This document shows, in pieces, positions 6,800 to 61,306 of a stretch of 64,000 nt of DNA. The notes beneath the pieces were generated by a model. The model made no database searches and was not told the DNA's origin. It was given only the letters and a program-made list of their open reading frames with translations. Position numbers and translations under genes: made by a program. Position 1 is the first letter of the stretch. Each line of letters opens with the position of its first letter. The stretch is from Escherichia phage vB_EcoM_G2494. Location: sequence record MK327935.1; one strand, written 5' to 3'.

Positions 6800-9700
6800 T
6801 TAAAGCGCCTAGTGTAACTAGCTTGACAATAGAAAAATTGTCTGCTAATCAGGCGTATATCACATGGGATGACGTAGGCGAAAACTTCTTTTATTTTGTG
6901 GAGTTAGCCGAAACCAGAACACGAGACGGGGAGATCATCCCCGTCGATGAGTTAAGCTGGGTAAACCTGGGATATACTGCCGACCAAAACTGGTTTGAGG
7001 ATAAAAACCTTTTTCCAGAATATTATTACAAATTTCGTGTAGCAGTAGCCGCAGAAGGATTTGAACAAAGTAAATGGATTGAAACCGAAGAGTTTCAGAC
7101 ATTTAAAACAAACGCATATAATTTTTCTATGATGCGAGAGTTCAACCTTGCAAACGAGTTTATAAAGGAAAAATTTACATACGATAATCGAGAGTATGTC
7201 AAGTTTAATACCGACCTTATTCAAGCATCATTGATGAAGGAAGATTTTGTCTTTAGTCCTGAATATGCAAACATGACAAATATCTCAAACTACATTGTAG
7301 TTGATGAGAACTTTCATGAAATACAGGATCACATAGAAAAAGTTTGTATTGATATAAACCGCACTATGTTAGCGGAAATGAACGGTGTTTTGTACCTTTT
7401 CGAACGGTTCCAGCCGATTGTGAAAGTGTCAAATGATAAAGGTCAATCATGGAAAGCATACAAGGCTTTTAATGACCGTGTAGGAAATCCGGTTTCCCGC
7501 ACATGCGTTTATCAGTCTAAAACCACTACTTACGTTTTAGGATATGACCGAATCTTTTACGGACGACAAGCTAGCGATACTCGATGGAGCGCGGACGATG
7601 TTCGATTTAGTGATGATACGATCACTTTTGCAAAGGTTGGTGACGAGAACGATTTAGGCATTGACGTTGAGGTCTTTGGTGTATTTTCCAGATTAACAGG
7701 GGACACCACAAAATACGCCGAAGCTATGGCGTGCAGTGATGACTATTTGTGGGTTGGTGCTAAAGATGTTATTCGCCGGATTCGTCTTAAGAATACTCCA
7801 GTTGATACCGTACAGGGTTCGCCTACGTTTGGAGAAAAAATATTCGATCCTGATGTTATCCGAGTAACAGGAAATGATAAAGCTGTCATTCAGAAAATGG
7901 ATGTGATCGACGGTAAATTGCTTGTATTTGTTACTGGTGAAGTTAAACAGCGTTATCAAGATCCAACCAAACCAGAAAACGTTGTTCCGTCAGATGATGC
8001 GGGTGTATACTTAATAGGGAGTGATGGTCTGTCTTTTCAGAGAGTATTTGGCAACACTCCGCAGGAAAGGGAATATATTCAGCATGGGTTCAGTAATATG
8101 TCAACCAATGGTGATGAGGTGTTTATAAGCCATTATAATCATCACTTCGAAAGCATTTTACCTGATCCAGAAACTGCCGCGAAATATGAATTGGGCGAAG
8201 CTGTAAAATATTCTCAGGAGCCAACTTATCTAACTGATAAGAAAATACATCAAACTACTTTCAGAGCAAGTTATGATGATTTGCGTATTTGGGAGTTAGG
8301 ACCGCAAGCGTATTATAATGAGGCCGACTATACATGGATGCGTCGAAACGGTGTTCGTGTATGGATCACAAATGATAATCGCCCGTTGGTTGTTTATCCA
8401 GAAGTTGTCTATACGCAGGAAGTTGATACTTCCGGCATTCTTGATAAAAACAGAATTAACCGTGAAGTTTATGATAAAGGGACCGTGACCTGTTATCTTA
8501 ACAATGTTAAATTTGAAGGATTCAAACAATATGCATCCGGTGTAATGTTCCATAAAAACACGGGAGAGATCATTGGATTCTATCAATTTAATTATCGTGT
8601 TCGTGACCAAGTTGGTGTATATTGGAAACCTACAAATGTAGCATTTGTTGCTGAATTGCAAAATCAGGTTCGAGAGGTTCCCTGGGTTCCGGTTCACTAC
8701 GATCGAGAGCAAGATCCAGATTTGCGACCTTTACTGAATAAGATGACACCTGATAGCTTTTTACTTGAGAACGAAAATTTCAGAAAATTCTCTGAATATT
8801 ATCTGCAATTCTTAAGTGATGGTTCAGGAACATATTATAATAAACTAAAAAATCTGATTAAAAACAAATATCCACGCGAGCAAGATGCATATGAGTATCT
8901 TTGGTCAGAGATGAACAAACGAAACATCTATGCAGATAAAAACAAGCGAGATGCGGTAGTAAGATTCTTTGAATCCCGCAAATCAGATTTTTATTCCACT
9001 AAGGGCGTGGAGGCTTCTTATAAGTTCTTGTTTAAGTTACTTTATAATGAAGATGTGGAAATTGAGGTTGAATCACAAGCCGGACTAGAGTATGATATTG
9101 TTGTTAGTTCAACGAACATTGACGAGGATATCGTAGGTCGCACGATTTATACCCCGACCGGACGGGCTAACGTGACTTATCTTGAAAGGGAATATGAAGG
9201 TGGACGTCTACGCTGGCGAGTAACCATTCATAACCTGATCGGGCGGTTCGAAGAAGGTCAAGTGATCAAATCAGAGAAAACAGCGTTTGAAGGGATGATC
9301 CTTGTTGGTGTGCGTGGTAAAGAGTTGTTGAGTAGTTCAATCGACTATATCAACCGCTCACGAAGCCAATACACCATGAAGATTAAAAGTGCATTGCCAG
9401 TTTCGCGCTATGCAAATGATGTAATGCGATTCGTTCATCCTGTCGGCTTTGGGTTTATCGGTGTTACCCTGCTTACGATGTTCATTAACAGCGGGTTGAG
9501 CATGAAGCACACCGAGACGATAATTCAATCTCTGAAAAATTATAAGTTTGACAGCGGATTGCCTAGCGTGTATCCTGATCGGGTGGCAGACCTTGACGTT
9601 GACGGAAACATTAAGAAAGACCCACTAACAGGGAAACCATTATACTTAACGTCACCGACAATGGGCGAAGAGTTCCCCGTTCCTCCTGAATATGATCAGG

Positions 9701-11558: not shown

Positions 11559-12397
11559 TGGCACGACTTTCTAAACAAGAACAAAAATTACACGATCGGG
11601 CGATGGAGTTGATTAATTCAGATCGTCCATTGACATTTGAAGAAAAAGAATTTTGCTATAACAATTATCATGGCGATGGACTAGGTGGTTCCGGTGCATT
11701 CTTTACCCCAGAATGGCTTGCCTGGGATTTTACCATTGATGCACACTGCACCGGAAAAGTATTAGATCTTTGTGCGGGGATCGGTCGCTTATCTTTTTGT
11801 ATGTTACATCGTTGTAAGCCAGAAAAGATCGTATGCGTCGAACTCAATCCAGAATTTGCGCGGATTGGCAAGCGACTATTACCGGAGGCAGAATGGATCA
11901 CCAGCGATGTATTCGAATTTGAGTCAAACGAAAAATTCGATGTGGTGATCAGCAATCCACCTTTCGGTAAAATCAATACTACAGACACAAAGGATGTATT
12001 TGAATATACTGGCGGTGAGTTTGAATTTAAGGTTATGACGTTAGGCCAGAAGTTTGCCGATGTAGGTTATTTTATTGTTCCTGCTAGTTCCGCTGGGTTT
12101 GCTTATTCCGGTAGACCTTATTATGATGAATCAGTGAAGTCTAATAAATATCTAAAATGGAGCAAACAAACTGGTTTGGTGACTTACGCCGGATGTGGGA
12201 TCGATACATCAATCTATCGCGATGAATGGCATAGTACCAACGTTTTAACAGAAGTGGTTGAGGTTCGGTATTACGAGAAAGAAGCCGTAGAAGCGCCTAA
12301 ATCACGTCCTAACGAACAAATAGAAGAAAGTAAGGAGATCACCTTACCGAAACAGGAAAGCGAGTCTGGGACGCTCTCAGATTTGTTTGACATTTAA
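11558..12397 (+). CDS. gamma-class N6-adenine DNA methyltransferase (orphan)
   Basis: 279 aa; motif X GAFFTP, motif I VLDLCAGIGRLS, motif IV ISNPPFG in gamma order; TAATG start overlap with upstream gene. Confidence 0.65.
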   Translation: MARLSKQEQKLHDRAMELINSDRPLTFEEKEFCYNNYHGDGLGGSGAFFTPEWLAWDFTIDAHCTGKVLDLCAGIGRLSFCMLHRCKPEKIVCVELNPEFARIGKRLLPEAEWITSDVFEFESNEKFDVVISNPPFGKINTTDTKDVFEYTGGEFEFKVMTLGQKFADVGYFIVPASSAGFAYSGRPYYDESVKSNKYLKWSKQTGLVTYAGCGIDTSIYRDEWHSTNVLTEVVEVRYYEKEAVEAPKSRPNEQIEESKEITLPKQESESGTLSDLFDI

Positions 12398-12401
12398 TTA
12401 T

Positions 12402-12428
12402 AAGCCGTCCTTGTGGGCGGCTTTTTTG
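12402..12428 (+). terminator. rho-independent terminator after methyltransferase cassette
   Basis: GC hairpin AAGCCGTCC...GGGCGGCTT followed by TTTTTT. Confidence 0.6.
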
Positions 12429-12437
12429 TATGTATTT

Positions 12438-12445
12438 TATAAATA
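12438..12445 (+). promoter_or_regulatory. T4-type late promoter TATAAATA upstream of gp9
   Basis: exact TATAAATA ~28 nt upstream of ATG. Confidence 0.55.
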
Positions 12446-12472
12446 ATACATCATAACATGAGGAATTAAACA

Positions 12473-13327
12473 ATGGCACAAGTTCCAAAGAAAAGAATAG
12501 ACACAGGTACTGTCGGCAATCCATCGACTGGCGATATCTTATATGATGGCGGTAATAAAATTAACGATAACTTTGATTCAATATATGACGCATTTGCTGA
12601 TCAACGGTTTAAAGACGTAGACCACGGCGTAGGAAGAATGGTTATTCATGCAACCGGATACTATCAGAAACATCCACGTCAAAGCTACTCTGGGTCCGCT
12701 GTTGAGATTGGGAGTCTACACGATATCGATACAACTCAAGGCGCACTTATTGCTATTCTACCTAAAGCAAAGGTTGGTGAGGGTGTTGTATTCATAAATA
12801 GTAACGGTAGCTTTTCAACGACGACACCGCTCAATATTAGAACTCAAGCAGGTGATTCTATTAGCGGGTATTCCGGTGATGCTATAATAACACAACCATT
12901 TTCAAAAGTCACTGTTTGGTGTACTGCCGTTGAAGGTAGTCGCGTAACATGGCGATTGGGTATCGAAAGTATGTTTACCGATACAACAACGCCATTAGAT
13001 AAAACAGTTAACGTAACTGGAGTAGCAACAAACGTTGCTATTGCCGCAAAAACAGAATACGTTTCCATCAAATTATTAACTACCGCTAGCAATACATCCG
13101 GTTCAAAAATGCGTTCAAGTGAAACGCTACTGATGATTGATTCTAAAGCCGGAAAAGTTTATGCGACGGAATATGCAGTTTTGCAGAAGACAGAAGACGA
13201 ATTATACACGGTTCGTTATTTCATCGGTTCCGGCGATAAAGTATATGCAGAGTATAAGGCTACTGGCGAAAATATTCGTTTAGCAGTTAAAGCCGTAGAC
13301 ACTATTAAAATCGGGGTTGCTACATGA
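12473..13327 (+). CDS. 9: baseplate wedge / long tail fiber connector gp9
   Basis: 284 aa; strong similarity to T4 gp9 (IDTG..GN.STGDIL.DGGNKIN, HATGYYQKH, VFINSNGS, SIESMF, KIGVA). Confidence 0.9.
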   Translation: MAQVPKKRIDTGTVGNPSTGDILYDGGNKINDNFDSIYDAFADQRFKDVDHGVGRMVIHATGYYQKHPRQSYSGSAVEIGSLHDIDTTQGALIAILPKAKVGEGVVFINSNGSFSTTTPLNIRTQAGDSISGYSGDAIITQPFSKVTVWCTAVEGSRVTWRLGIESMFTDTTTPLDKTVNVTGVATNVAIAAKTEYVSIKLLTTASNTSGSKMRSSETLLMIDSKAGKVYATEYAVLQKTEDELYTVRYFIGSGDKVYAEYKATGENIRLAVKAVDTIKIGVAT

Positions 13328-15126
13328 AACAATTAATTAATATCGGTAACGTTGTTGATGACGGTACAGGTGATTATCTAAGAAAAGGCGGTCAAAAGAT
13401 TAATGACAACTTTTCTGAACTTTATACTAAGCTGGGGGATGGTGATATCCCTCATGCATCCGGCGCGTGGAAAACTCACACACAACCAGTATTAAAACCA
13501 AATTTTGGTGATGCATGGGCAATTAATACAACGAACAACGCTGTTTCTGTTGAATTGCCTAAAGGAAGCGCGAGTGATTACAATAAAACAATTAAACTTC
13601 GTGATGTTTGGCGCTCATGGGCTGCACATAACGTAACATTGAAGCCAGCACAAGGTGATACCATTAAGGGATCTCCAATCGACCGTGAGTTGTATAAAGA
13701 TTTTATGGATGTTGAACTGGTTTATTGTGCGCCTGGACGCTGGGAATATATCGAAAACAAGCGAGTTGACACGATCACCACGTCTGACCTAAGCACAGTA
13801 GCTAAGGAAGTTTATATTGCCACAGAAGGGCAAACAGATTTCCCTAATGTATTTGGTTCTAACACATATAACACTCGAAATGTTGAAGTATATTATCGAG
13901 GAAACCTTTTATATTATGGCAAGTCTTTTAGTAATGACTCTAACTACGGTTCAATTGGTGAGGATGGATCACTTGTTGAACTTGATGGCAAAAGCATAAA
14001 ACTTCGTTTTCCTTGTTCGGCTGGGGACACCGTTCAAATTATTACATATATGGACGGAATTGCATCATTCCGATCTAGTTATATCACACACACAATTAGA
14101 GTGTATGATACCGGAATGACAGCACTAGAAACTATTCCGGGTGAAGTGTGGGTAGGTGATTTATCGACGAAAAAAGAATTTACCAATGCTGATTTGGGAG
14201 TTAGTAAACGTGATATAATTAACCCAAATTCATTTGAGTTATTAATAAATGGCACTCAAATGATTAAAGCTGGTGATGCTGATCTTCCTTCGTTTGTTTG
14301 TGAAGGTGCTGACGGAGAAACCGAAGAGAGTTGCGCACTTGCTGGCGGTCAGTGGGTACAGTCTGGAGAAGATTATTCACTGGTATTTGATGAGAATAGC
14401 ATTGTAACAGGGATTAAATTAGCTAAAGCGTTGGACAATAGAGATACTATAACAATTCGTTGGTTTAATAACGATATCGGAACTCTATTAGAATGGGATG
14501 GTGTCGGCGGAATTAAAGAAAAAGCAGACAAGATTTATCTCAATAACGAAGACGAAGTTAATTTAACAAAACAAATTGAATATACAGACTTCCAGAATCC
14601 TAGTCAGAAAAACACTCGTCCGGCAGAAGAGTATTCAGGTCGAATTATGGATATATATTCACTGTTTGATATTTTTCATCCGGTCGGCACGATATACGAA
14701 AACGCACATAACCCAGCTAACCCAGCGACCTATATGGGGTTTGGTATCTGGGTTCGGTATGCGGAAGGAGAATTTCTTGCTGGTTGGTCTTCCGATGCCA
14801 GCGACCAGAATTTTGCATTAAACAATAACGATCTTGATATTCATGGACAACCTACACACACCGCTGGTGGTACTGGTGGTGAAGTTGCCTATCAAATCAA
14901 GAAAGATATGATTCCTGAATTACAATCCAGCGATCGTGTTTTGGTGAAAGACGATACAGGGTCAATTATCATTGGTGGCTGTCAAGTTGATCCTGATGCG
15001 GCAGGTCCAGCGTTTACGAAATATAGAGAGGATATCGTAAAAGTTAATTCTGGAAATGCTGATCCATCAATGATGGGCATTCTTCCTCCATATCGCACCG
15101 TTCATCGCTGGTTAAGGGTAGGTTAA
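13324..15126 (+). CDS. 10: baseplate wedge subunit and tail pin gp10
   Basis: 600 aa; N-terminal domain resembles gp9 N-terminus; size as T4 gp10. Confidence 0.8.
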   Translation: MKQLINIGNVVDDGTGDYLRKGGQKINDNFSELYTKLGDGDIPHASGAWKTHTQPVLKPNFGDAWAINTTNNAVSVELPKGSASDYNKTIKLRDVWRSWAAHNVTLKPAQGDTIKGSPIDRELYKDFMDVELVYCAPGRWEYIENKRVDTITTSDLSTVAKEVYIATEGQTDFPNVFGSNTYNTRNVEVYYRGNLLYYGKSFSNDSNYGSIGEDGSLVELDGKSIKLRFPCSAGDTVQIITYMDGIASFRSSYITHTIRVYDTGMTALETIPGEVWVGDLSTKKEFTNADLGVSKRDIINPNSFELLINGTQMIKAGDADLPSFVCEGADGETEESCALAGGQWVQSGEDYSLVFDENSIVTGIKLAKALDNRDTITIRWFNNDIGTLLEWDGVGGIKEKADKIYLNNEDEVNLTKQIEYTDFQNPSQKNTRPAEEYSGRIMDIYSLFDIFHPVGTIYENAHNPANPATYMGFGIWVRYAEGEFLAGWSSDASDQNFALNNNDLDIHGQPTHTAGGTGGEVAYQIKKDMIPELQSSDRVLVKDDTGSIIIGGCQVDPDAAGPAFTKYREDIVKVNSGNADPSMMGILPPYRTVHRWLRVG

Positions 15127-15782: not shown

Positions 15783-17186
15783 ATGAATAACACTATTAAT
15801 CACGTAAAAGACGATGCACAGTATGTTAAGTTTGACCCTACCGGAAATTGGCCTAGCAATATAAAAAACGTACAAGCGGCATTAGCCGCTATTCAGGGGT
15901 TTGCTATTGCAGGTCTTCCAACGGCAACCGAAGAAACAGCGGGTATTGCTGAAATTGCTACTCAAAAAGAAGTAGATGATGGGTTGGATGGAACTAAAAT
16001 TGTTACCCCAAAAACATTGGCTGTTAAGCTGTCAAGACCGGACGCAACAAAACTTGTCAAAGGGATCACTCGCTATGCTAATAACGATGAAGCTATGGGC
16101 GATACTCCAAATATTGCAATTGGTCCTGATACATTAACCCATGTATTCGAGAAGAAGAAGGCAACGGAAACCGTACAGGGTACAATTAAAATTTGTTCTA
16201 TGGATGCGGCAAAAATAGGTAGCGATGACACTATGGCAGTAACGCCTAAAAAGATGCACGCTGCGATTGCTCAGATTGTTCCTGGATTGATCCCAGAGCA
16301 AAATACCGCTTCCGAATCCCGTGAGGGTCTAGTTAGGCTGGCAACAAGCCAACAAACGCTTGCTGGTACTATCAGAGAAGGATTTGCCGTTAGCCCATAT
16401 GCATTTTCCAACGCAAGAGCCAATGAAAATCAGGCGGGTACTGTTAAAATTGCGTCATCCCAACAAATGATTGACGGTAATGACAACACAGTAGTAGTAT
16501 CAGCACAAAAATTTGCGAACACTAAAGCAACCACTGGACAATTCGGTGTTGTTAAGCTAACAGATAATCCCAGTTCCGGTGAAGCAAATGCTGCGTTATC
16601 TGCAAATGCTCGTGTATTGCCTCTAAGCGGTGGTGTCGTTACTGGTGATGTGTATCGTCATAGTGGAGGTGACGGAAACCAGTTTACCACTAAAAACGAA
16701 ATGGATGCATGGTGTATGCCAATTGGTGCAATTATTCTAACTGCATTCAATAGCAATGATCACGGCGCATTTAAAATTTGTAACGGTCAATGGTTAAATA
16801 AACACCAATATCCAGTATTATTTTCACGAATCGGTTTCACTTACGGCGGAGATGGCGGAGACAACTTTGCTCTACCCGATATGCGAGGGCTTGTTGCTAG
16901 AGGATGCGACCACGGTCGAGGACTAGACCCAGGTCGTGGATTTGGTACTTATCAAGACGACACCATGCAACATATGACAGGTAACTTCCCTGTAGCTAAC
17001 CGTTGGCGCGGTTGGACTGGTGGTGCATTTGCCATCACAGGCGGTCAATGGAGCACGAACTATAAAAACGGTGGTGGTGATGATTGGGGTAGTATTGTTA
17101 ACTTTGACAGCGCAAGACAGGTTAGAACGTCTGGCGAAACTCGCGTTAAAAGCCTTGCATTAAACTACATGATAAGGGTACAATAA
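15783..17186 (+). CDS. 12: short tail fiber gp12
   Basis: 467 aa; blocks shared with T4 gp12 (YVKFDP, LATSQ..AGTIREGFAVSPYAF, NFALPDMRGL, SLALNYMIRV). Confidence 0.85.
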   Translation: MNNTINHVKDDAQYVKFDPTGNWPSNIKNVQAALAAIQGFAIAGLPTATEETAGIAEIATQKEVDDGLDGTKIVTPKTLAVKLSRPDATKLVKGITRYANNDEAMGDTPNIAIGPDTLTHVFEKKKATETVQGTIKICSMDAAKIGSDDTMAVTPKKMHAAIAQIVPGLIPEQNTASESREGLVRLATSQQTLAGTIREGFAVSPYAFSNARANENQAGTVKIASSQQMIDGNDNTVVVSAQKFANTKATTGQFGVVKLTDNPSSGEANAALSANARVLPLSGGVVTGDVYRHSGGDGNQFTTKNEMDAWCMPIGAIILTAFNSNDHGAFKICNGQWLNKHQYPVLFSRIGFTYGGDGGDNFALPDMRGLVARGCDHGRGLDPGRGFGTYQDDTMQHMTGNFPVANRWRGWTGGAFAITGGQWSTNYKNGGGDDWGSIVNFDSARQVRTSGETRVKSLALNYMIRVQ

Positions 17187-20751: not shown

Positions 20752-21507
20752 ATGAAAAACTATTATCTATACGAAATAAAGAACAATATAAATGGTAAGA
20801 TATATGTTGGCATTCGTGGGTATGATGGTGACATAAGTCAAGATCCTTATATGGGTAGTGGATTGACTCTTAAGAGGTCTATTAAAAAGAACGGGATAGA
20901 AAACTTCACAAAAACAATTCTCAAAACGTTTGACTCATGGAAAGAGGCAAGGAAAGCAGAAAGAGAAATAGTTACAGAGGAATTTGTAAAAAGAGAAGAT
21001 ACCTATAATGTTTCGGTTGGTGGACAAGGTGGAAATACTCACGCTGGGATGAGCGAAGAACGAAGAAAACTTGCAAGCGAAAGACACGCAGAAGCAAACC
21101 GAAATAGAGTATGGAAGCAAGAATCTAGAGATAAGGTTAGCGCAAGATTCAAAGGTCATAAGCTATCACAGAAGCAGATAGACGCGCTAAAGAAGGCAAA
21201 CACAGGAAGAAAGTTCACAGAAGAACACAAGTTCAAAATAGGTAAAACGTGGCGAGGAAAGAAACGACCAGATATAGGAGAGAAGGTTGCGGCAAAATTA
21301 ACAGGGAGAAAACTACCCCCAGAACATGTGGCAGCAATAACGCAAAATACACCGAGAGGAAAACAACACTTTAGGGCAAAAAGATTCTTCATCGACGATA
21401 TGGAATTTTATATTTTGAGTGACGCAGCTAAAATGTTTGGTATAAGTTATAAAACGGTTAAAGCTAGACTTCTCTCAGATAAGTTTCCTACATGGAGATA
21501 TGAATAA
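20752..21507 (+). CDS. free-standing GIY-YIG homing endonuclease (Seg-like)
   Basis: GIY-YIG motif YLYEIKNNINGKIYVGI; NUMOD-like repeats; C-terminal HTH ILSDAAKMFGISYKTVKARL; inserted between gp14 and gp15. Confidence 0.8.
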   Translation: MKNYYLYEIKNNINGKIYVGIRGYDGDISQDPYMGSGLTLKRSIKKNGIENFTKTILKTFDSWKEARKAEREIVTEEFVKREDTYNVSVGGQGGNTHAGMSEERRKLASERHAEANRNRVWKQESRDKVSARFKGHKLSQKQIDALKKANTGRKFTEEHKFKIGKTWRGKKRPDIGEKVAAKLTGRKLPPEHVAAITQNTPRGKQHFRAKRFFIDDMEFYILSDAAKMFGISYKTVKARLLSDKFPTWRYE

Positions 21508-22396
21508 ATGTTTTCACATTTTTACAATTCGTCAATTAGACGGTATATTGTATTGCTGGGTAATTTATTCTCCGGCGTACAAATTAAAAGGGTGCGTAGC
21601 GACGGTGAGCGTTTTATTAAAGTTCCTATCACCTACGCAAAGAAAGAAAAATTCATGATGAGTCTGGACAAATATAACAATATCTCAAGTGAGGAAGACG
21701 TAGCAAAGGTAGAAACTATTTTACCGCGTATGTGTCTTTCTTTGATTGATATGACATACGCCCAGAACTTTAAAACAAATATTGCAAATAAGACAGTACC
21801 AAAATATACGGCTGATGGAATCAGGAGCGTAACACAATATAATCCTGTACCATATAAGTTTACTTTCGAGTTAGGGATTTATACGCGTACAATATAATCC
21901 TGTACCATATAAGTTTACTTTCGAGTTAGGGATTTATACGCGTAACGAAGATGATATGTTTCAGATAATTGAACAGATTCTTCCTTACTTCCAGCCTCAT
22001 TTTAACTGTAAGATTAAAGAACTACACGGTAATGATGTATGGATTGATCGAGATATTCAGGTCACTATTAGTTCTATTACTCCAGATGAACAGGTAGGCG
22101 AAGATAAGTTTTCTCGTCGTCGTCTTGAGTGGACCATTATGTTCGAATTTATCGGCTTTATATATCCTCCAGCTACCGACGTTAAGGGGGAAATTAGAAC
22201 GATTTATCTTGATTTTCATGCTAATTCTCGTGAATTAAATCCTAGCGGTAATTTTGAATCAGTGGATCACGAGGTCGTTAAACGTGACGTCGAGCAAGAA
22301 GATTGGGACGGAACAATCAAAGAATCATATTCTAGTGATATTCCAATACCAGTTGCACCAACTCCACCGGGTCCACGTATTGTAAGAGAATTTTAA
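21508..22396 (+). pseudogene. 15: gene 15 (tail sheath stabiliser/tail completion) split into two ORFs (21508..21897 and 21956..22396) by a frameshifting tandem duplication
   Basis: N-part ends ...ELGIYTRTI*, C-part starts MFQIIEQILPYFQPHF; removing one 55-bp repeat copy restores the continuous T4-like sequence ...GIYTRNEDDMFQIIEQ... Confidence 0.7.
21835..21944 (+). repeat. perfect 55-bp tandem direct duplication inside gene 15
   Basis: caatataatcctgtaccatataagtttactttcgagttagggatttatacgcgta present twice back to back (21835-21889 and 21890-21944). Confidence 0.85.
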
Positions 22397-22409: not shown

Positions 22410-26015
<3,606 letters not shown>

Positions 26016-39603: not shown

Positions 39604-39699
39604 TTATTTTGTTAGACATGTAGTATCCTCTTTTTAATTGCATAACGGAACTACAATTAAAATTATAACAAATATTTCACAACTTTTATCACCCAAAAA

Positions 39700-40425
39700 T
39701 TACTTGAGTGTGTGGAATTGGCTGTGTTTAGTCTCTCGCACCTTGACAGACCCATCGCGTTTGATATAATAGATCAGTGACTTGAGTGTGTCGTGTACAT
39801 ACGCGTGCGGGAAACGCTCTGGATACTTCTTCCAATCTGGAGTATTAACGATCCAGTCGAAAATCCACCACGGGCAGGAGTAGTAACCACGACCGCCACC
39901 GATCAAGCAAATGGTCGGACGGAAACCAGTAAGATCGCAAAATGAATCAGTGTCATGTGCTGGGGAACGATGCTCTGCTTCGTTAGAGAAAATGTTGGCT
40001 ACCGGAGATTCCACTTTAACTTCCGGTGCTTCTTCAACATCTGACTTAACTTCTTCGACCACTGGTTCAACTGCCGGAGATTCTTCTTTTGTTTCTTCAA
40101 TGACGATCTCAGGTTCTTTCATTGCTTCAACCAGAGACGGATCAACTTCGTCGAATACCACTTTATCATCTGCGGTGTCTGTTGCCAGAATAAGATCGTT
40201 AATACTGGTTCCTTCTGCCGGAGTTTCTTCTTCCATTTCGGAAGCCAGTTTAGTTAATTCTGTTTCTACGAACTCGATCATGTTCTCTAGCGAGAGCGTC
40301 TTTTTGACCTTTATATCAAATTGTTTTGCGTAGTCCGCTAATTCTGTTTTAGCGGCTTTCTGTGATTCTTTGTCGTCGGACGCCGCAATAGCGCGGAGTT
40401 CTTCGAAATATTCTTTATCAAACAT
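39700..40425 (-). CDS. acidic protein with Hoc-C-terminal-like segment (inh position by synteny)
   Basis: 241 aa; acidic low-complexity middle; C-terminal CPWWIFDWIV...DWKKYPERFPHAYVHDTLK resembles Hoc capsid-binding region. Confidence 0.45.
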   Translation of the reverse strand: MFDKEYFEELRAIAASDDKESQKAAKTELADYAKQFDIKVKKTLSLENMIEFVETELTKLASEMEEETPAEGTSINDLILATDTADDKVVFDEVDPSLVEAMKEPEIVIEETKEESPAVEPVVEEVKSDVEEAPEVKVESPVANIFSNEAEHRSPAHDTDSFCDLTGFRPTICLIGGGRGYYSCPWWIFDWIVNTPDWKKYPERFPHAYVHDTLKSLIYYIKRDGSVKVRETKHSQFHTLK

Positions 40426-40451
40426 GTTATTCTCCTGATTGGTGGTGTTTG

Positions 40452-40459
40452 TATAAATA
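40452..40459 (+). promoter_or_regulatory. late promoter-like TATAAATA upstream of uvsW
   Basis: exact motif ~22 nt upstream of start. Confidence 0.45.
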
Positions 40460-40480
40460 TTTGTATACTGTATTTATTGA

Positions 40481-41998
40481 GTGAGGCTATTCGCTATGCA
40501 AGATATTAAAATTCACTTTCTGAACTACTCCCATGTTCAAATTGAATGTAGCGATTCAATTTTATTAGAAATGCGAGATTATTTTAGTTTTGAAGTCGAG
40601 GGAGCGCGGTTTCAAAAAAGATTTAAGTATGGTGGATGGGATGGGCGTATTCGTCTTTTAGATTACAACGGAAAGCTGCCAATCGGCCTAACTAAAACCG
40701 TGGGAATCTTCGCTAAAAATATGGGCTATAGCGTATGGGTAGATCCTCGCTTATTCGAAAAAGAACAAGTTACAGAAGAAGAAATTACAAAATGGTGTAA
40801 TGACTTAGAATTATATTCCGGTGCTAACAGGATCACCCCGCATTGGTATCAATCAAAGGCTGTCTTTGAAGGTATTCATCATAAACGCCGTATGTTAGTT
40901 TTGCCTACGTCCGCTGGTAAATCTGCGATTGCTTGTATGTTGTCTCGCTGGTACTTAGAGAACTACGAAGGGAAAGTGCTGATCATCGTTCCTACCACGT
41001 CGCTAGTGCTGCAAATGCGTGATGACTTTGTTGATTATCGCCAGTTTCCTTATGAAGCAATTCATACTATCATGAGCGGTACTAGTAAACACGTAGGTGA
41101 TCGCCTGATCGTTGTTAGTACGTGGCAATCAGCATGTAAACAGCCTCGTGAGTGGTTCCAGCAATTTGGGATGGTTATTGTTGACGAATGTCACAAAGCC
41201 ACTGCTAAAAACCTGCTAAACATCGTTACTGATATGGATCATTGCCAATTTAAGATCGGCATGACTGGTTCCCCTCGTGACGGGAAAGCTAACATGATGC
41301 AGTATGTCGGGCTTTTCGGTGATATTTCTAAGATCGTGAGTATTGACCGCCTGATGGAAGAAGGGCAGGTGACAAAACTGAAAATTAACTGTCTTTTCCT
41401 TCGTTATACCGATGATGAATGTAGCGCGGTTAAGGGGCGAGAATATGCGGAAGAGATCAAGTATATTACGTCTAACCCACGACGAAATAAGTTTGCTTGT
41501 AATTTGGCGCTAAAACTCGCTAAGAAGGGCGAAAACGTATTCCTGATGTTCCGCAATACTAAGCACGGAAAACTTATGTATGATGCGTTACAGAAGGTAC
41601 ACGACAAGGTTTATTATATTGACGGTGGAGTTAAGACAGAAGAACGTGATGAATTTAAGAAATTAGCGGAAGGGGAAACCGGGATCATTTGCGTTGCATC
41701 CTATGGTGTGTTCTCTACTGGTGTTTCAATTAAGAATTTGCATCATGTTATTTTCGGTCATCCAGTGAAGGAATCAACTATCGTTCGTCAGAGTATCGGT
41801 CGTGCATTGCGTAAACATGGTTCTAAGGATATTGCAACGGTCTGGGATCTTATAGATCATCTGGCGGTGAAGACAAAGAGCAAGAATGCTAAGAAACAGT
41901 TTAGTCACCTTAATTATGCTCTTAAACATGCCATTGAAAGAATAAAAATTTACAACACCGACCGATTCGAATATGCCACGAAAACCATCGAGATTTAA
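40481..41998 (+). CDS. uvsW: UvsW DNA/RNA helicase
   Basis: 505 aa; extensive identity to T4 UvsW (GGWDGRIRLLDYN, LPTSAGKS, VDECH, GMTGSPRDGKANIMQYVG, ASYGVFSTG, HLNYALKH). Confidence 0.9.
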   Translation: MRLFAMQDIKIHFLNYSHVQIECSDSILLEMRDYFSFEVEGARFQKRFKYGGWDGRIRLLDYNGKLPIGLTKTVGIFAKNMGYSVWVDPRLFEKEQVTEEEITKWCNDLELYSGANRITPHWYQSKAVFEGIHHKRRMLVLPTSAGKSAIACMLSRWYLENYEGKVLIIVPTTSLVLQMRDDFVDYRQFPYEAIHTIMSGTSKHVGDRLIVVSTWQSACKQPREWFQQFGMVIVDECHKATAKNLLNIVTDMDHCQFKIGMTGSPRDGKANMMQYVGLFGDISKIVSIDRLMEEGQVTKLKINCLFLRYTDDECSAVKGREYAEEIKYITSNPRRNKFACNLALKLAKKGENVFLMFRNTKHGKLMYDALQKVHDKVYYIDGGVKTEERDEFKKLAEGETGIICVASYGVFSTGVSIKNLHHVIFGHPVKESTIVRQSIGRALRKHGSKDIATVWDLIDHLAVKTKSKNAKKQFSHLNYALKHAIERIKIYNTDRFEYATKTIEI

Positions 41999-53935: not shown

Positions 53936-53961
53936 TTGATACTCCTTAGTAGTTCGTTTCT

Positions 53962-53990
53962 GTATGTGTGTATTATGATATACACCCTCT
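53962..53990 (-). promoter_or_regulatory. sigma70-type early promoter
   Basis: minus strand GTTGTTGACA, 17 nt, CATAAT. Confidence 0.6.
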
Positions 53991-54005
53991 GTTATGTCAA
54001 CAACT

Positions 54006-54185
54006 TTTAGAACATTTTTGAAATTAATTCTGCTTTGATTTCGCAGAGAACATCTAAAGATTTCTCGTCACCCGCTTTTGCTGCTTCTGCTTGCATTTTT
54101 GAAATGGCTTCAATCTCAGTGCAATTATAAGCCGCTTGAACTTTAGCGATTGCGAGGATTGCCGATTCGATGGTTAAGTGTTTTA
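54006..54185 (-). CDS. small early ORF lacking a canonical start codon (ATA where paralogous contexts have ATG)
   Basis: conserved RBS GGAGAATCAAAC then ATA AAA CAC...; 60-codon open frame; early promoter upstream. Confidence 0.3.
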
Positions 54186-54217
54186 TGTTTGATTCTCCTT
54201 TCGTTTCGGTATGTGTG

Positions 54218-54246
54218 TATTATAGGGGATCGATGATCCCCTGTCA
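54218..54246 (-). promoter_or_regulatory. sigma70-type early promoter with palindromic spacer
   Basis: TTGACA-ggggatcatcgatcccc-TATAAT on minus strand. Confidence 0.65.
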
Positions 54247-54255
54247 ACAACTTTT

Positions 54256-54810
54256 TTAGTTATTTTTTAATTGCTCATCTTGCAATAGGGCAATCACATG
54301 CTGGCGATGTTCTTCCGATTGAGGCACACCGAAAAAGTTTGTTTTGTAGAAATACTCTAATCGGTCTTCTCGTGTGCTCTCTTCCATCATGATCGCGGGT
54401 AGTCCGAGATTTCGGAAACGTCGCTTTTCTGCTGGCGTAAAATCACTGTAATACATCATAGAATCATCATTACCAGCAATGCTAAACTCATCCTTCATGA
54501 AGGAGAATATTGCGTTTAAACGCTGTTTACCGTCCACGATTTCGATCTCATAGCGAGAGCCATCATCAATCTTAGCCATTGCGATAGCACCAACCGGAAA
54601 ATCATTAATCAGGTTTTCGATAAACATACGTTTGTTTTCGGTGTCCCATACTAAAGGACGCTGATAATCTGGGTTCATGTTGATATAGCCATCTTCTAAC
54701 CATGCATCATAAACAGAGATGACAAAGTTTTTAGTATTGGTATAGTAACGGCGTTTAGGCGTTAAACGGTTCATGTTATAGTCTCCTGAATGGATCATCA
54801 CGTAAATCAA
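54256..54810 (-). CDS. DUF262 / ParB-like nuclease-domain protein
   Basis: 184 aa; NPDYQRPLVW ... IVDGKQRLNAIFSF match the DUF262 N-terminal and DGQQR-type motifs. Confidence 0.55.
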   Translation of the reverse strand: MIYVMIHSGDYNMNRLTPKRRYYTNTKNFVISVYDAWLEDGYINMNPDYQRPLVWDTENKRMFIENLINDFPVGAIAMAKIDDGSRYEIEIVDGKQRLNAIFSFMKDEFSIAGNDDSMMYYSDFTPAEKRRFRNLGLPAIMMEESTREDRLEYFYKTNFFGVPQSEEHRQHVIALLQDEQLKNN

Positions 54811-55105
54811 TATCTTTTAAGAACTCATCCCATGAATGGCGGATATTGTTCTTAATTCTCCAGATAAGAGCAGGGATTGAACGCTCTCCCATCTGGAAGT
54901 ATGGATCATATGATCCGTATGCCCAATATGCTACTACAATTCCACAATCAGCGCAATAGTATTCTATTTCACTTGCTGGCGACAAAAGTCCATCAATATG
55001 ATCGGTGATCTTGCTTTCGATGTTATGGCTATGACAATCAGGGCAACGGATGCAATGACCTTGTTTATCGTAATTTGATGTTAGTGAATACTTAAACAAT
55101 CTCAT
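54776..55105 (-). CDS. zinc-ribbon protein
   Basis: 109 aa; CIRCPDC...CADCG. Confidence 0.45.
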   Translation of the reverse strand: MRLFKYSLTSNYDKQGHCIRCPDCHSHNIESKITDHIDGLLSPASEIEYYCADCGIVVAYWAYGSYDPYFQMGERSIPALIWRIKNNIRHSWDEFLKDIDLRDDPFRRL

Positions 55106-55821
55106 TATAGATCCTTATTTGCTTCAAATACTGCCTTTGCGAATCCTCGCGGGGTAAGTGACCTTATAGTCTTTGTTTTCGTTCCTTTCCCGCCTAGCTT
55201 AGAATGCTGTTTACTGTACCCTTTATTAATCTGCAACGGTTTCTTTTCTGGCATTATAAAGCCTTGTCCGGTCCATAAGCAAGTCTTTTTTGGGTACATA
55301 TCACGGGCGGCAATATACTCAGGAAACGTAGGATGCTTATCATCTTCCGGCAAATAACCGCCATATTCCCACGGATGGAACATATAATCAGGCTTACGCC
55401 ACATGCTAGAGATAACGCTTACAGGATTCTCTATCATGTAGGGAACTCCTAGCCATTCACCCAAATAAGCGGTTATTTTGGCTGCCCTTACATCATGAAC
55501 TTGAATCAATGGTCCTTGTTCTCGTTTCTTTCGTTCAAAGTGCGCAGCGCCACTAACAGCTAAATTGGTGCATGGTGGGAATGCAAAGATAATATCCGGT
55601 TTCCCCCATTCAAGGTCCATTGCTCTTTCTAGCCAGTTAAAATCAATCCATGTGTTTACATAGGTAATGTTTGGATGTTCAAATCTGGTATTATACTTTT
55701 TGTATGTTCCGTGGTCGCCATCGTCAGCATTAAAGCAGATCACCTTATGACCTGCTTTAGCCCATTCTAACCCCATTATCCCCGATCCGTCAAAGTTACA
55801 GAATATTAATTTTTGTTTCAT
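55105..55821 (-). CDS. C5-cytosine methyltransferase-like protein (divergent, short)
   Basis: 238 aa; motif I-like FCNFDGSGIMG, motif IV-like FAFPPCTNLAVSG (PCT instead of PCQ), motif VI-like YMIENPVS, C-terminal RSLTPRGFAKAV; no obvious target recognition domain. Confidence 0.45.
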   Translation of the reverse strand: MKQKLIFCNFDGSGIMGLEWAKAGHKVICFNADDGDHGTYKKYNTRFEHPNITYVNTWIDFNWLERAMDLEWGKPDIIFAFPPCTNLAVSGAAHFERKKREQGPLIQVHDVRAAKITAYLGEWLGVPYMIENPVSVISSMWRKPDYMFHPWEYGGYLPEDDKHPTFPEYIAARDMYPKKTCLWTGQGFIMPEKKPLQINKGYSKQHSKLGGKGTKTKTIRSLTPRGFAKAVFEANKDL

Positions 55822-56063
55822 ATACGCCCCTTTAATCCAACACAGATTTTAGAAGGTTCTTTGCCGTGCCACATTAAGTAAAGTCCGTTAATGCGGCCTT
55901 GTTTTGTATATGATTCTTTTCTGATCTTCTTATAGTGTCGTGCTTCCTCAGCCGATTGTTTAGAATACCAATCATAAAGGAAGAGGCACAAAGGCCACCC
56001 ATTAGCGGCCTTAATGCAGTTATTAAGAAATTCCTTATTGCGTTTAATTAATTTTCTTTTCAC
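55818..56063 (-). CDS. hypothetical early protein
   Basis: 81 aa, overlapping start/stop with neighbours (operon). Confidence 0.4.
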   Translation of the reverse strand: MKRKLIKRNKEFLNNCIKAANGWPLCLFLYDWYSKQSAEEARHYKKIRKESYTKQGRINGLYLMWHGKEPSKICVGLKGRI

Positions 56064-56311
56064 GCTGCCCCCATTGGTTTGATAGTAACAGAATCTAAAA
56101 GACCTTTGTTAGCCAGTTCGCGGCAAGTTTTCAGATCCGCAACTTCCCAGCCAGCCGCAATCAGGTTATCAATGAGGCTGTTAGCAACTTCTTCGCTCAT
56201 GAAAGAGCACTGTTTGCCGATGGTGTAGCGTACACGCTGTAATTTCAGTTTACGGAAGCCTTTAACGTTCAGGTCTTTAGCGATTTTCTTTGCGGTTTCG
56301 ATGTTAGCCAT
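56060..56311 (-). CDS. hypothetical early protein
   Basis: 83 aa, first gene behind the promoter at 56352-56380. Confidence 0.4.
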   Translation of the reverse strand: MANIETAKKIAKDLNVKGFRKLKLQRVRYTIGKQCSFMSEEVANSLIDNLIAAGWEVADLKTCRELANKGLLDSVTIKPMGAA

Positions 56312-56351
56312 TGTTTGATTCTCCTAAGTGGTATCTCGTCTTGATGGTTGT

Positions 56352-56380
56352 ATTGTAGGGGAGTTATCCTCCCCTGTCAA
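56352..56380 (-). promoter_or_regulatory. sigma70-type early promoter with palindromic spacer
   Basis: TTGACA-ggggaggataactcccc-TACAAT on minus strand. Confidence 0.6.
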
Positions 56381-56394
56381 CACTTTTTATAAAA

Positions 56395-56562
56395 TTATTT
56401 GTTAATTTCCGGTGCGTTGCTTGGATAGTAACCTTCTTTAACACCCAGGTATTTCGCAACCATCCCTACAATCTTCTGTGCTACTACAATGTCAAATTTC
56501 AGATAATCTTCGCCGTGGGTTTCAATGATATATGCTTCACATGCTGCTTTAGTCTCGAACAT
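56395..56562 (-). CDS. small early protein (55 aa), paralog of 60188..60355
   Basis: MFETKAACEAYIIETHGEDYLKFDIVVAQKIVGMVAKYLGVKEGYYPSNAPEINK; below ORF-track cutoff; conserved RBS GGAGAATCAAA. Confidence 0.5.
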   Translation of the reverse strand: MFETKAACEAYIIETHGEDYLKFDIVVAQKIVGMVAKYLGVKEGYYPSNAPEINK

Positions 56563-56595
56563 TTTGATTCTCCTATTTCGTTTCGTTATGTGTGT

Positions 56596-56624
56596 ATTAT
56601 AGGGGATCTCCCGATCCCCGTCAA
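56596..56624 (-). promoter_or_regulatory. sigma70-type early promoter with palindromic spacer
   Basis: TTGACG-gggatcgggagatcccc-TATAAT on minus strand. Confidence 0.6.
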
Positions 56625-56637
56625 CAACTTTTTAAAA

Positions 56638-57111
56638 TTATTTGCACCAAATTCGAATGATTTCGTCTCGTTCAAATTTTTGCCAGATTACTCGGTCGCC
56701 CGCTGCCATAATCCTGACAAATCCAGTTATATTTCCGGTGTACTTGCTTTTAGTTTCTGCATCATATTCAAAGAATGGAGCTTTAAGATCGCTAAACTCA
56801 TCTTTTCCCACAAACTTCATAACATGACGGTGTGCGTAATATTCGCTTCTTAGTGTTGTTGTGATAGTTCCGTCATCATTTGATTTCAGATGCAATTCGG
56901 CATCTTCATAAAGACTTGCATCTCGTTGTTTACTTTCGATACCATCATTATATGTTGATTTGGTTGCACTCCAACATTGATATGTCTTATCTACATTTTC
57001 GATCTTTTCCTGTGTCATGTCAAAAAGCGGCGCAACCTTTTTCTTAGCCGCGTGCGCAACGTTGGTCATAGACAGTGCCGCAACAACCGCAATAGCAATA
57101 ATTTTCTTCAT
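56638..57111 (-). CDS. secreted/periplasmic protein
   Basis: 157 aa; N-terminal signal peptide MKKIIAIAVVAALSMTNVAHA. Confidence 0.55.
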   Translation of the reverse strand: MKKIIAIAVVAALSMTNVAHAAKKKVAPLFDMTQEKIENVDKTYQCWSATKSTYNDGIESKQRDASLYEDAELHLKSNDDGTITTTLRSEYYAHRHVMKFVGKDEFSDLKAPFFEYDAETKSKYTGNITGFVRIMAAGDRVIWQKFERDEIIRIWCK

Positions 57112-57172
57112 AATATCATCTCCTTTGGTTTATATGGCGGGAGTATCTTAGCAATACTCCCTTAATACTATA

Positions 57173-57454
57173 TTATTCGTGATTAGTTTCGATGTTGTGC
57201 ATTTTGCACCAGTTCAGCCAATCGCCCAGATCTTGATAGTTGATGCTTTTATCTGCTGCCATCGTTTTTGTCTTGATACCCATATGTGCGTTATGAGTAA
57301 GCATTTTTACAGTGAACTCAATTTTATCACCTTTAGCTTTAACATCAACCAGTTTGGTCCACTGGCTACCAGCGCCGCGAATGTTCATACCAACGATGTT
57401 TCCGATGTATGCTTCTTTGTTTTTCAGGATTTCGGTTGCTTTGATGAATTTCAT
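57173..57454 (-). CDS. hypothetical early protein
   Basis: 93 aa; promoter 57488-57516 and RBS upstream. Confidence 0.45.
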   Translation of the reverse strand: MKFIKATEILKNKEAYIGNIVGMNIRGAGSQWTKLVDVKAKGDKIEFTVKMLTHNAHMGIKTKTMAADKSINYQDLGDWLNWCKMHNIETNHE

Positions 57455-57487
57455 TTTTGATTCTCCAGTTCGTTTCGGTATGGGTGT

Positions 57488-57516
57488 ATTATGCTATGTT
57501 CTTACTTTGGTGTCAA
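57488..57516 (-). promoter_or_regulatory. sigma70-type early promoter
   Basis: TTGACA, 17 nt, CATAAT on minus strand. Confidence 0.55.
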
Positions 57517-57524
57517 CAACTTTT

Positions 57525-57794
57525 TTAGATATTTTCAGAAATAAATTTTAAAACTTGACGTAAATGTTTCTCGTCTTTGATAGTCGCCGGAAGTTCTTCT
57601 TTTACTTCCTGTGCAAGATAGATATTTCCGTTCCAAGTGAAAGATCCGTCTTCGTTTACGCGATAGCTGAACATCCACTCGCAATCATTTTCGATTTCAT
57701 ATACACACAGAAGGGTGTAATCTTCAAAGCTATTGATTTCAAGGTCGAAGCCGTGACGTTTTGCAAAGTTGGTAGTGGTTTTAGTCAGTGCCAT
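57525..57794 (-). CDS. hypothetical early protein
   Basis: 89 aa; RBS GGAGAATCAAACA-ATG. Confidence 0.45.
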   Translation of the reverse strand: MALTKTTTNFAKRHGFDLEINSFEDYTLLCVYEIENDCEWMFSYRVNEDGSFTWNGNIYLAQEVKEELPATIKDEKHLRQVLKFISENI

Positions 57795-57834
57795 TGTTTG
57801 ATTCTCCTAAGTGGTATCTCGTTTCGATGTGTGT

Positions 57835-57863
57835 ATTATGCTATAGGCGTGATCTGGTGTCAA
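57835..57863 (-). promoter_or_regulatory. sigma70-type early promoter
   Basis: TTGACA, 17 nt, CATAAT on minus strand. Confidence 0.55.
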
Positions 57864-57920
57864 TGCCTTTTTTAAAATTTTATGCAATAAAAAAGCCGAC
57901 ACTAAGGTCGGCTAATAAAA

Positions 57921-58229
57921 TCATTTAGACAAATAATCATTCTGTGCAATCCGGTCGGCGTATGCTGGTGTTATGTCAATCGCCAGCACTTTAACGCGTG
58001 CTTTCTTGCGACCTGGGTTTTCTCGTAACCAGTGCTCATGACCGTGAACATTTTTATACTGCGATGCTTCTTCGAAGGTACGGATCGGACCTGGGTAATC
58101 AGCGTAAAGGATCTCTAGATCTTCGGTGATGTAAAAATATACATCGTAATTGCTGTTCTCTAGCTTAAGCAGAGACTTTCGGAACATTGGGAGATTTTCG
58201 CGGGTAAATTCAAAGATATTATCTTTCAT
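57921..58229 (-). CDS. HxHW-family small early protein (paralog 1 of 7)
   Basis: 102 aa; YFYITEDLEILY ... HGHEHW ... VLAIDI. Confidence 0.5.
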   Translation of the reverse strand: MKDNIFEFTRENLPMFRKSLLKLENSNYDVYFYITEDLEILYADYPGPIRTFEEASQYKNVHGHEHWLRENPGRKKARVKVLAIDITPAYADRIAQNDYLSK

Positions 58230-58279
58230 AGTATTATCCTCAATAGTTGGATGAAAAGGGGGGCTTAACGCCCCGTATA

Positions 58280-58567
58280 TTAAAACAGTCCTTCCTGTAC
58301 ACCGTAGTAGAGTTCATCGCTGATAATTTCATTAATGCGACGGTGTGCATATTCCTGATTTGCGAAGTTGTCAGCAAGTTCTACTTTAGTTTCGCCGTCA
58401 TGAGTCCATTTAGTGATAACTTTACCATCTGCAAATTTGAAGTTGAACTCTTTAGCTACCGCATCGCGTACCAGACGTGCAAACTTATTGTTGCGGATTG
58501 CATTGTCGGTTTCGTGTTCAGCGTGAGCGAATTTGTTAACTTTCAGAGTGATAGTAATGTATGCCAT
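58280..58567 (-). CDS. small early protein, AKEFN-motif family (paralog of 61845..62156)
   Basis: 95 aa; ARLVRDAVAKEFNFKF vs AILIREVRKALAKEFNTKI in the other copy. Confidence 0.45.
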   Translation of the reverse strand: MAYITITLKVNKFAHAEHETDNAIRNNKFARLVRDAVAKEFNFKFADGKVITKWTHDGETKVELADNFANQEYAHRRINEIISDELYYGVQEGLF

Positions 58568-58613
58568 AATTTGATTCTCCTAGTTAGAAAGTGTATCTCG
58601 TTTCGATGGGTGT

Positions 58614-58642
58614 ATTATGCTATACACCCGATCTTATGTCAA
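58614..58642 (-). promoter_or_regulatory. sigma70-type early promoter
   Basis: TTGACA, 17 nt, CATAAT on minus strand. Confidence 0.55.
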
Positions 58643-58648
58643 CACTTT

Positions 58649-58927
58649 TTATAAAATAATTTTTTGATATTTTTCTATGATGTTTGTGTAGGTCACATCA
58701 ACCGCGAGCACCGTTGCTTCGAATCCACCGTTTAGCCAATGGCTATGATCGTGATCGTTAAAGAAACCGAGGCCAGTGCGAAGACCTTCTTTATATTCGG
58801 CGCGTACATTCAGTTTGTCGTCGATAAACAGATAAAACCATGAATTTTTACTAGGATTGATGATACAACCTTTCAGATTAGGGAGAATATCACGACTAAG
58901 AATAAACTTATCACCTACTTTGAACAT
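58649..58927 (-). CDS. HxHW-family small early protein (paralog 2)
   Basis: start taken at ATG 58925-58927 (MFKVG; track ORF starts at a GTG at 58942); FYLFIDDKLNV ... HDHSHW ... VLAVDV. Confidence 0.5.
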   Translation of the reverse strand: MFKVGDKFILSRDILPNLKGCIINPSKNSWFYLFIDDKLNVRAEYKEGLRTGLGFFNDHDHSHWLNGGFEATVLAVDVTYTNIIEKYQKIIL

Positions 58928-58931
58928 AATA

Positions 58932-59252
58932 TTAGTCCTCACTTATAAGGTCAAACCAATTGTTTTTCGCATAATGCTTAATGCGTGCTTGATCTGCTTC
59001 CGCTGGTGATAGATTCCATGCGATCACTACAACTTCTGACGCATCGTCATCCGTTTCTGATATCCAATGATTGTGATTCATACAGTTATTTGCTATCGCG
59101 TGAGCAAATGATCTCATTACTGGAGACGTATAATCATAGTAACGGATTTTCAGATTTTCATCAACGTACAAATAGATCGTATAAGGTTTATATTCAGTAA
59201 CCAGTAACAGACAGTTACGCAATTCTGGGAAAATCTTTTTAGTTAATTTCAT
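58932..59252 (-). CDS. HxHW-family small early protein (paralog 3)
   Basis: 106 aa; IYLYVDENLKI ... NHNHW ... VVVIAWNL. Confidence 0.5.
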   Translation of the reverse strand: MKLTKKIFPELRNCLLLVTEYKPYTIYLYVDENLKIRYYDYTSPVMRSFAHAIANNCMNHNHWISETDDDASEVVVIAWNLSPAEADQARIKHYAKNNWFDLISED

Positions 59253-59454
59253 AGTCTATTTCTCCGTAATACACGGTAATCCATTTTTCTTCATACTTTG
59301 TATCTTTCCAACACACAATCCCGTTTACTGTGCAATCTTTGGAATTGACGAATGATTCATATTGTTCTGCGTCTTCCATCATTGCATGAGCGGTCTTTTC
59401 ATCGAATATATCGCAGATCGCTTTATATGCTCAATAATCTTTAAATTTGCTCAT
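59239..59454 (-). pseudogene. tandem paralog of 59457..59666 with in-frame TGA at codon 8
   Basis: MSKFKDY-TGA-AYKAICDIF...AMMEDAEQYESF... parallels MSKFKDYKAYQQILRVY...KMMEDASKCPSF... of upstream copy. Confidence 0.4.
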
Positions 59455-59456
59455 AA

Positions 59457-59666
59457 TTAAGACCACTCAAGAGTTTTTGAAAACACATCTATCCATTGTT
59501 GAGTATATGCGGTTTCTTTCCATGATACAATACCAGTAGAATAATGGTTTTTGTTTCCAGAAAAGGACGGGCATTTTGATGCGTCTTCCATCATCTTTTC
59601 GGCGAACTCTGGTTCGTATACTCGCAAGATCTGTTGATATGCTTTGTAGTCTTTAAATTTGCTCAT
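59457..59666 (-). CDS. small early protein (69 aa)
   Basis: intact copy of a tandem gene pair. Confidence 0.45.
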   Translation of the reverse strand: MSKFKDYKAYQQILRVYEPEFAEKMMEDASKCPSFSGNKNHYSTGIVSWKETAYTQQWIDVFSKTLEWS

Positions 59667-59931
59667 AATCGTTAACTACCTTATCAGCTTCTTTTATTGT
59701 TTTTACATCAACTGCGATAACCCGTAAAGGTTCGTCATGGTTCCACCAATGATCGTGAATATCGGCTTGTGATTTATCACCAAAGGAATCACGAATATCA
59801 TTTTTACATTTATAGCTAATGTGACCTTCATAGTCAACATAAAGGTAATTATCGAAAATCGGCGTTTTTAAGATCATACCGAAAAATCTTTCTTTGTGTG
59901 TCTTATCCAGTGTTGCAGTAATTCGCATCAT
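59653..59931 (-). CDS. HxHW-family small early protein (paralog 4)
   Basis: 92 aa; NYLYVDYEGHI ... HDHWW ... VIAVDV. Confidence 0.5.
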   Translation of the reverse strand: MMRITATLDKTHKERFFGMILKTPIFDNYLYVDYEGHISYKCKNDIRDSFGDKSQADIHDHWWNHDEPLRVIAVDVKTIKEADKVVNDYEQI

Positions 59932-59943
59932 AATATATTCCTC

Positions 59944-60123: not shown

Positions 60124-60155
60124 TTTGATTCTCCGTTTGTTGTCTTGATGGGAGT

Positions 60156-61305: not shown

Positions 61306-61306
61306 G

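Follow-up and report, generated by a model that had tools for sequence, protein, structure and literature searches.

Gene product 15 (gp15) of T4-type phages binds gp3 and the last ring of gp18, by which the tail is completed and becomes competent for head attachment (PMC3004832). Given this role, a phage that is propagated cannot lack gp15, of which only six copies are needed per virion (PMC3004832). In the DNA analysed here, a window of 64,000 nucleotides from a T4-type coliphage of the genus Krischvirus (RB49/JSE group) in the Straboviridae, the gene for gp15 is interrupted by a segment of 55 bp that is present twice. The question is whether this lesion belongs to the phage, which would then have to live with a broken tail gene, or to the process by which the sequence was put together.

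The Duplication and Its Effect on gp15

Tandem Repeats Finder places a repeat of period 55 at 21834-21944, with 2.0 copies, 100% matches and zero indels. The first copy of the unit (ACAATATAATCCTGTACCATATAAGTTTACTTTCGAGTTAGGGATTTATACGCGT) lies at 21834-21888 on the plus strand, in the native frame of gp15, where it takes up codons 110-127. The second copy, at 21889-21943 on the same strand, is 100% identical and abuts the first head to tail with no spacer. Since each base equals the base 55 positions further on for a run of 56 positions, the boundary of the unit can be shifted by one base, and the interval 21835-21944, under which the two back-to-back copies were initially described, is equally valid. 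The junction at 21888/21889 reads TTATACGCGT up to the boundary and ACAATATAATCC beyond it, which can also be written as GGGATTTATACGCGT followed by ACAATATAATCCTGTACC, and the microhomology at the boundary amounts to 1 bp. In a search of the 64-kb window for perfect direct repeats of at least 25 nt, this duplication was the only one found. Simple arithmetic gives a chance expectation of about 64000/4^55, or about 5e-29, for a repeat of 55 bp.

Because 55 mod 3 is 1, copy 2 is entered from upstream in the wrong frame, and the frame that opens at 21508 meets a TAA stop at 21895-21897. The product is an N-terminal fragment of 129 aa (21508-21897, plus strand) ending in ...GIYTRTI. The remainder of the protein continues in the +1 frame, open from position 21875 onwards; the next ATG in that frame is at 21956 (448 mod 3 = 1), from which a C-terminal fragment of 146 aa extends to 22396 on the plus strand. 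The two fragments match positions 1-118 and 122-242 of the 245 positions of the Pfam profile PF16724, and the break thus falls in the middle of a single domain. When one copy of the unit is deleted, an ORF of 277 aa is obtained that reads ...GIYTRNEDDMFQIIEQILPYFQPHF..., and its residues 1-272 align with residues 1-271 of T4 gp15 (PDB 3j2m/4hud) at E = 5.4e-100. Judged by this alignment, the restored ORF is collinear with T4 gp15, the tail terminator or sheath stabiliser (PF16724). The original prediction had proposed the stop after GIYTRTI, the restart in the +1 frame at 21956 and the collinearity on deletion of one copy, and all three were borne out.

Can the two fragments be expressed as they stand? 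The Shine-Dalgarno pairing upstream of the ATG at 21956 was calculated at -1.0 kcal/mol; 19 genuine genes nearby gave values of -3.3 to -8.2 kcal/mol, and the 1335 ATGs of the plus strand average -1.6 kcal/mol. The C-terminal fragment is predicted to be without a ribosome-binding site. The stop of the first ORF is located 59 nt upstream of this ATG, a distance that makes translational coupling unlikely. Neither downstream start signals nor a split conserved in relatives was found for a functional two-ORF gp15, and a two-piece protein was rejected on the grounds of the missing ribosome-binding site and the break in mid-domain. The split gene is predicted not to be adapted to function.

Distribution among Relatives

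The unit is present as a single copy in all 76 related Krischvirus sequences examined, which comprise 63 phage records, 10 contigs encoding a homing endonuclease identical to the one encoded next to gp15 in the window, and three metagenome or virome contigs. The 63 phage records are those matched by 1.1 kb around the duplication, with at least 95% identity at the best place in 57 of them, and the best match of the window in the phage collection reaches 98.4% identity over 24 kb; in the E. coli genome collection the window had zero matches. Every one of the 63 aligns as two pieces, with a span 55 bases shorter than that of the query. When a 71-bp probe with the junction at its centre was used, none of the phage records contained the intact junction; 54 of the 63 matched this probe, only as two separate pieces.

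The same picture was obtained beyond the phage records. The 277-aa gp15 is encoded in all ten of the contigs listed (10 of 23) that encode the identical 251-aa endonuclease. The exact 55-mer was found once each in three contigs of IMG/VR or metagenomic origin, and when IMG/VR and the metagenome collection were searched for contigs that contain the unit twice, or that begin and end with it as a raw contig with a direct terminal repeat would, only these three one-copy contigs were returned. The junction, queried as a 33-mer, had zero exact matches in IMG/VR or JGI metagenomes. An exact-protein look-up of both truncated gp15 proteins found neither among 153 billion recorded gene positions.

The age of the duplication can be judged from the closest genomes. 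The restored gp15 gene differs from that of phage AV108 at one of 834 bases, and in 400-bp windows across the duplication site, AV108 shows 0-1 mismatches per 400 bp. The nearest relatives are unchanged on both flanks. This near-identity, together with the same closest relatives on either side, means that the duplication has essentially zero evolutionary age; neither divergence between the copies nor a compensating change was seen in comparison with relatives. The idea that two strains were joined into a chimera at this point was considered and found to be unsupported, as the nearest relative never switches in the 400-bp mismatch counts. A variable position directly next to the unit, which would form a branch point in a de Bruijn graph, was also sought; the only one is at 21888, the last base of the unit, and it varies only in FL20.

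A Probable Artefact of Assembly or Finishing

Circular permutation and terminal redundancy characterise T4-type genomes. When a genome is circular or circularly permuted, a de Bruijn assembler writes it out as a linear contig, the two ends of which repeat k bases; by default, k goes up to 55 in metaSPAdes and, for shorter reads, in SPAdes. We put the probability at about 85% that the 55-bp duplication arose in assembly or finishing and is no part of the phage DNA; the evidence is circumstantial, and all of it points in the same direction. The two copies are 100% identical and adjacent, their length equals a common assembler k, near-identical genomes that were assembled independently lack the duplication, and the genome is of a type that assembles as a circle (Krischvirus, T4-type, a group for which circular permutation is established).

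The artefact could have arisen as follows. At default settings, the circularly permuted genome would have given a contig with its last k bases, here 55, repeated at both ends. If this contig was closed, rotated, re-opened or wrapped with the overlap left untrimmed, the overlap would have become an internal, perfect, head-to-tail duplication of 55 bp. Concatenation of two contigs that are neighbours in the graph and overlap by a k-mer would be an alternative route to the same outcome. The old contig ends would have fallen inside gp15 by chance, so that the join appears as a +1 frameshift, and the true genome would contain one copy of the unit and an intact 277-aa gp15. We infer both the connection with k = 55 and the rotation.

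Similar cases have been reported. The T4-like coliphage 132, assembled using SPAdes v3.12.0 at its defaults, gave contig ends with a 55-bp overlap, "which indicated a circular genome"; one of these ends was cut off, and the circle was then opened anew so as to match T4 (PMC8483715). A circular metagenomic contig with ends "overlapping by 55 bp" was described as well (PMC8851603). The k-mer end overlaps of SPAdes and metaSPAdes share with the present case an exact direct repeat of 55 bp in a circularly permuted T4-type coliphage; the difference is that the repeat here is internal and not at the two ends, the closing or rotation being the step that would have brought it there. Spurious repeats of about 79 bp were found in short-read-only assemblies of phages, and most of them proved to be artefacts by Sanger sequencing (PMC10438801). 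These przondovirus repeats resemble the duplication in being short repeats in otherwise correct phage assemblies, but they have another length, come from another phage group and lie near terminal-repeat regions (PMC10438801). The original prediction had offered an artefact, a scar tolerated through some compensating mechanism or a defective genome; the artefact is the option favoured by the evidence, and an untrimmed 55-bp overlap of the reported kind (PMC8483715, PMC8851603) is a specific mechanism that the prediction had not named. The tolerated-lesion options are not supported.

The quality of the sequence as a whole was assessed by a tblastn comparison of the window with 48 coding sequences annotated in phage FL20. 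Full-length recovery in one frame was found for 43 of them, and one more runs off the start of the window. The remaining four are gp15, split by the frameshift; gp17, which has a 1284-bp insertion; a homing endonuclease gene specific to FL20, which is absent; and the neighbour of the latter, which differs at its N-terminus. Among the 48 sequences compared, gp15 is the only one that is frameshifted. Errors are thus not widespread in the sequence, in keeping with one join event.

The Less Likely Case of a Genuine Recent Duplication

It is improbable, in our view, that the duplication is a genuine and very recent frameshift mutation, such that a defective gp15 mutant dominated the sample or a leaky one was helped by revertants or by co-infecting wild type. 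Tandem duplications do arise spontaneously in T4-type phages, a consensus sequence cannot tell a real duplication from an artefact, and the match of 55 to an assembler k could be a coincidence. With only six copies of gp15 needed per virion (PMC3004832), slight leakiness might also permit some growth. However, the requirement for gp15 in tail completion would make such a mutation lethal or nearly so, none of the relatives carries it, a microhomology of 1 bp at the boundary says little for slippage, the second half of the gene is without a ribosome-binding site, and the length is that of a default assembler k. Singer et al. are said to have found in 1982 that about 50 bp of homology is enough for efficient recombination in T4. 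At such efficiency, a tandem repeat of 55 bp would collapse to wild type, and the mutant would be outcompeted. Spontaneous tandem-duplication frameshifts known from T4, for instance in rII, are likewise head to tail and of a length that is not a multiple of 3, but they occur in non-essential or conditionally essential genes under selection and usually between short direct repeats, whereas the gene here is essential and the microhomology is 1 bp. Were the duplication real, the way in which an essential tail gene tolerates a frameshift would become a question, and the sequence supports nothing of it.

The Neighbouring Homing Endonuclease

The gene for a free-standing homing endonuclease of the GIY-YIG/I-TevI type is located at 20752-21507 on the plus strand, between gp14 and gp15. 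Its product has an I-TevI-type DNA-binding domain and weak matches to the SegE GIY-YIG domain and NUMOD3. The ORF ends 327 bp upstream of the duplication, in agreement with the roughly 330 bp that had been noted, and a double-strand break made by this enzyme within gp15 could be imagined to have left the duplication as a repair scar. For Seg-type enzymes such as SegG, cleavage at a distance of a few hundred bp from the site of insertion is known.

Comparison of alleles with and without the endonuclease gene argues against this. The gene is present in JSE, TB34, FL20 and AV108 and absent from RB49 and W115. A cluster of 11 substitutions in gp15 codons 2-6 (21513-21525, plus strand; MFSHFY versus MFGWHY) splits the endonuclease-carrying from the endonuclease-free genomes, and the endonuclease-linked differences in gp15 are confined to this cluster, about 310 bp upstream of the duplication. 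The gp15 gene of W115 has only one further difference, at 21600, with the rest of about 810 bp identical, so W115 is identical to the window across the duplicated segment. This confinement places the target of the endonuclease most plausibly at the gp14/gp15 junction, and the cluster in codons 2-6 probably represents the target site in its disrupted form. It was also seen that gp15 is intact in the ten listed contigs that have the identical endonuclease. Break repair in T4-type phages relies on homology, and duplications of 55 bp are not among its known products; moreover, a scar of this kind would remain lethal. We consider a cleavage scar very unlikely and have rejected it on the position of the endonuclease-linked changes; the endonuclease is probably irrelevant to the duplication, and the link suggested in the original prediction is not supported.

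Hypothetical Recoding of the Split Gene

It is scarcely credible that a real duplication is read through by recoding, whether the ribosome hops 55 nt from one copy to the other or shifts by +1 where the two frames overlap for 20 nt (21875-21894). The bypass of T4 gene 60 is the natural comparison, its coding gap of 50 nt being close to 55 nt. Both are interruptions of about 50 nt in an essential gene of the T4 family with matched codons on either side, a tandem duplication gives identical take-off and landing codons 55 nt apart, and little gp15 is needed per virion. In gene 60, however, a stop directly follows the take-off codon, and a take-off stem-loop, a nascent-peptide signal and conservation accompany it; these are absent here. 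The ATA at 21892-21894, the codon just before the TAA stop, lacks an in-frame partner 55 nt downstream, and a take-off codon and stop with a matched in-frame landing codon and a stem-loop was not found at the duplication. No stable local hairpin is predicted, as the local RNA folds no better than shuffled sequences (z = -1.46; the fold was equalled or bettered by 14 of 200 shuffles), and an Rfam search of the whole window gave zero matches. A known +1 slippery motif was not seen, a +1 shift would add 18-19 aa within a single-domain fold, and none of the relatives conserves the arrangement. We give next to no credence to the idea that a viable phage has here acquired its own recent counterpart of the gene 60 bypass, which it would tolerate because six gp15 subunits suffice.

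Other Insertions and Repeats in the Window

The gene for the large terminase gp17 (22904-26015) is broken by the 1284-bp insertion directly after the Walker-B motif FIYIDE, with a span given as 23670-23953 through 24953. The first of the two resulting ORFs (22904-24655, 583 aa) contains gp17 residues 1-256, a 12-residue stretch, Cys-rich zinc-ribbon-like motifs and then a nuclease of the PD-(D/E)xK type, which is TnsA-like or endonuclease-I-like; an exact-protein look-up did not find this ORF on record. The second (24636-26015, 459 aa) begins with a 106-aa extension ending in ...NNVESHN, followed, from a C onwards, by gp17 residues 257-607. The extension matches the C-fragment of the engineered "Cat" consensus atypically split intein (PDB 6dsl_B, E = 1e-12), and the intein models of Pfam and NCBIfam gave no match. 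The insertion has the appearance of a naturally occurring split intein, atypical in the manner of AceL-TerL and accompanied by a nuclease, an arrangement that has been termed fractured genes (PMC2677866). Phage TB34 is annotated with the same two gp17 ORFs.

Further mobile elements were seen in related contigs. A Logan contig of ERR3588751 has a different insertion in gp17, where a single ORF of 938 aa (12098-14914) shows a faint LAGLIDADG match; the site is equivalent to about 23395 in the window, and the insertion resembles an ordinary intein that occupies another site of the gene. A Logan contig of SRR12268560 has an extra SegE-like GIY-YIG gene (8368-9183) between gp13 and gp14 and an unannotated ORF of 199 aa (16005-16604) between gp18 and gp19, which shows how many slots for mobile nucleases there are in the late-gene cluster. 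The homing endonuclease gene that is specific to FL20 (FL20 39651-40382) is absent from the window at about 40430-40490. Beside this slot, the window gene at 40481-41998 (GTG start) is 81.6% identical to its FL20 counterpart and has a different N-terminus, another case in which divergence is concentrated at the boundary of an endonuclease insertion.

Two other kinds of repeat were noted. At least seven dispersed intergenic repeats of about 45-65 nt (families D1-D5) occur at 53940-62250, with a conserved hairpin core of GTATGTGTGTATTATAGGGGATC...GATCCCCTGTCAACAAC followed by a T-run; we take them to resemble the promoter/stem-loop (PeSL) cassettes of RB49-type phages. A perfect 16-bp tandem repeat (ATTCGCTTAAGGGTGG, 2.1 copies) is present at 62323-62355 in the early-gene region.

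Implications

The recorded sequence contains the duplication, which is unique to it and to which nothing in it is adapted. If the duplication is an artefact of assembly or finishing, the source sequence would need the deletion of one 55-bp copy, and the value of the finding would be for quality control only. The gp15 gene as deposited would then be mis-annotated, as two fragments or as a pseudogene. A screening rule would follow for other genomes, namely, that a perfect tandem duplication whose length equals a default k (21, 33, 55, 77, 99 or 127) and which breaks a conserved gene bears the mark of an untrimmed circularisation overlap.
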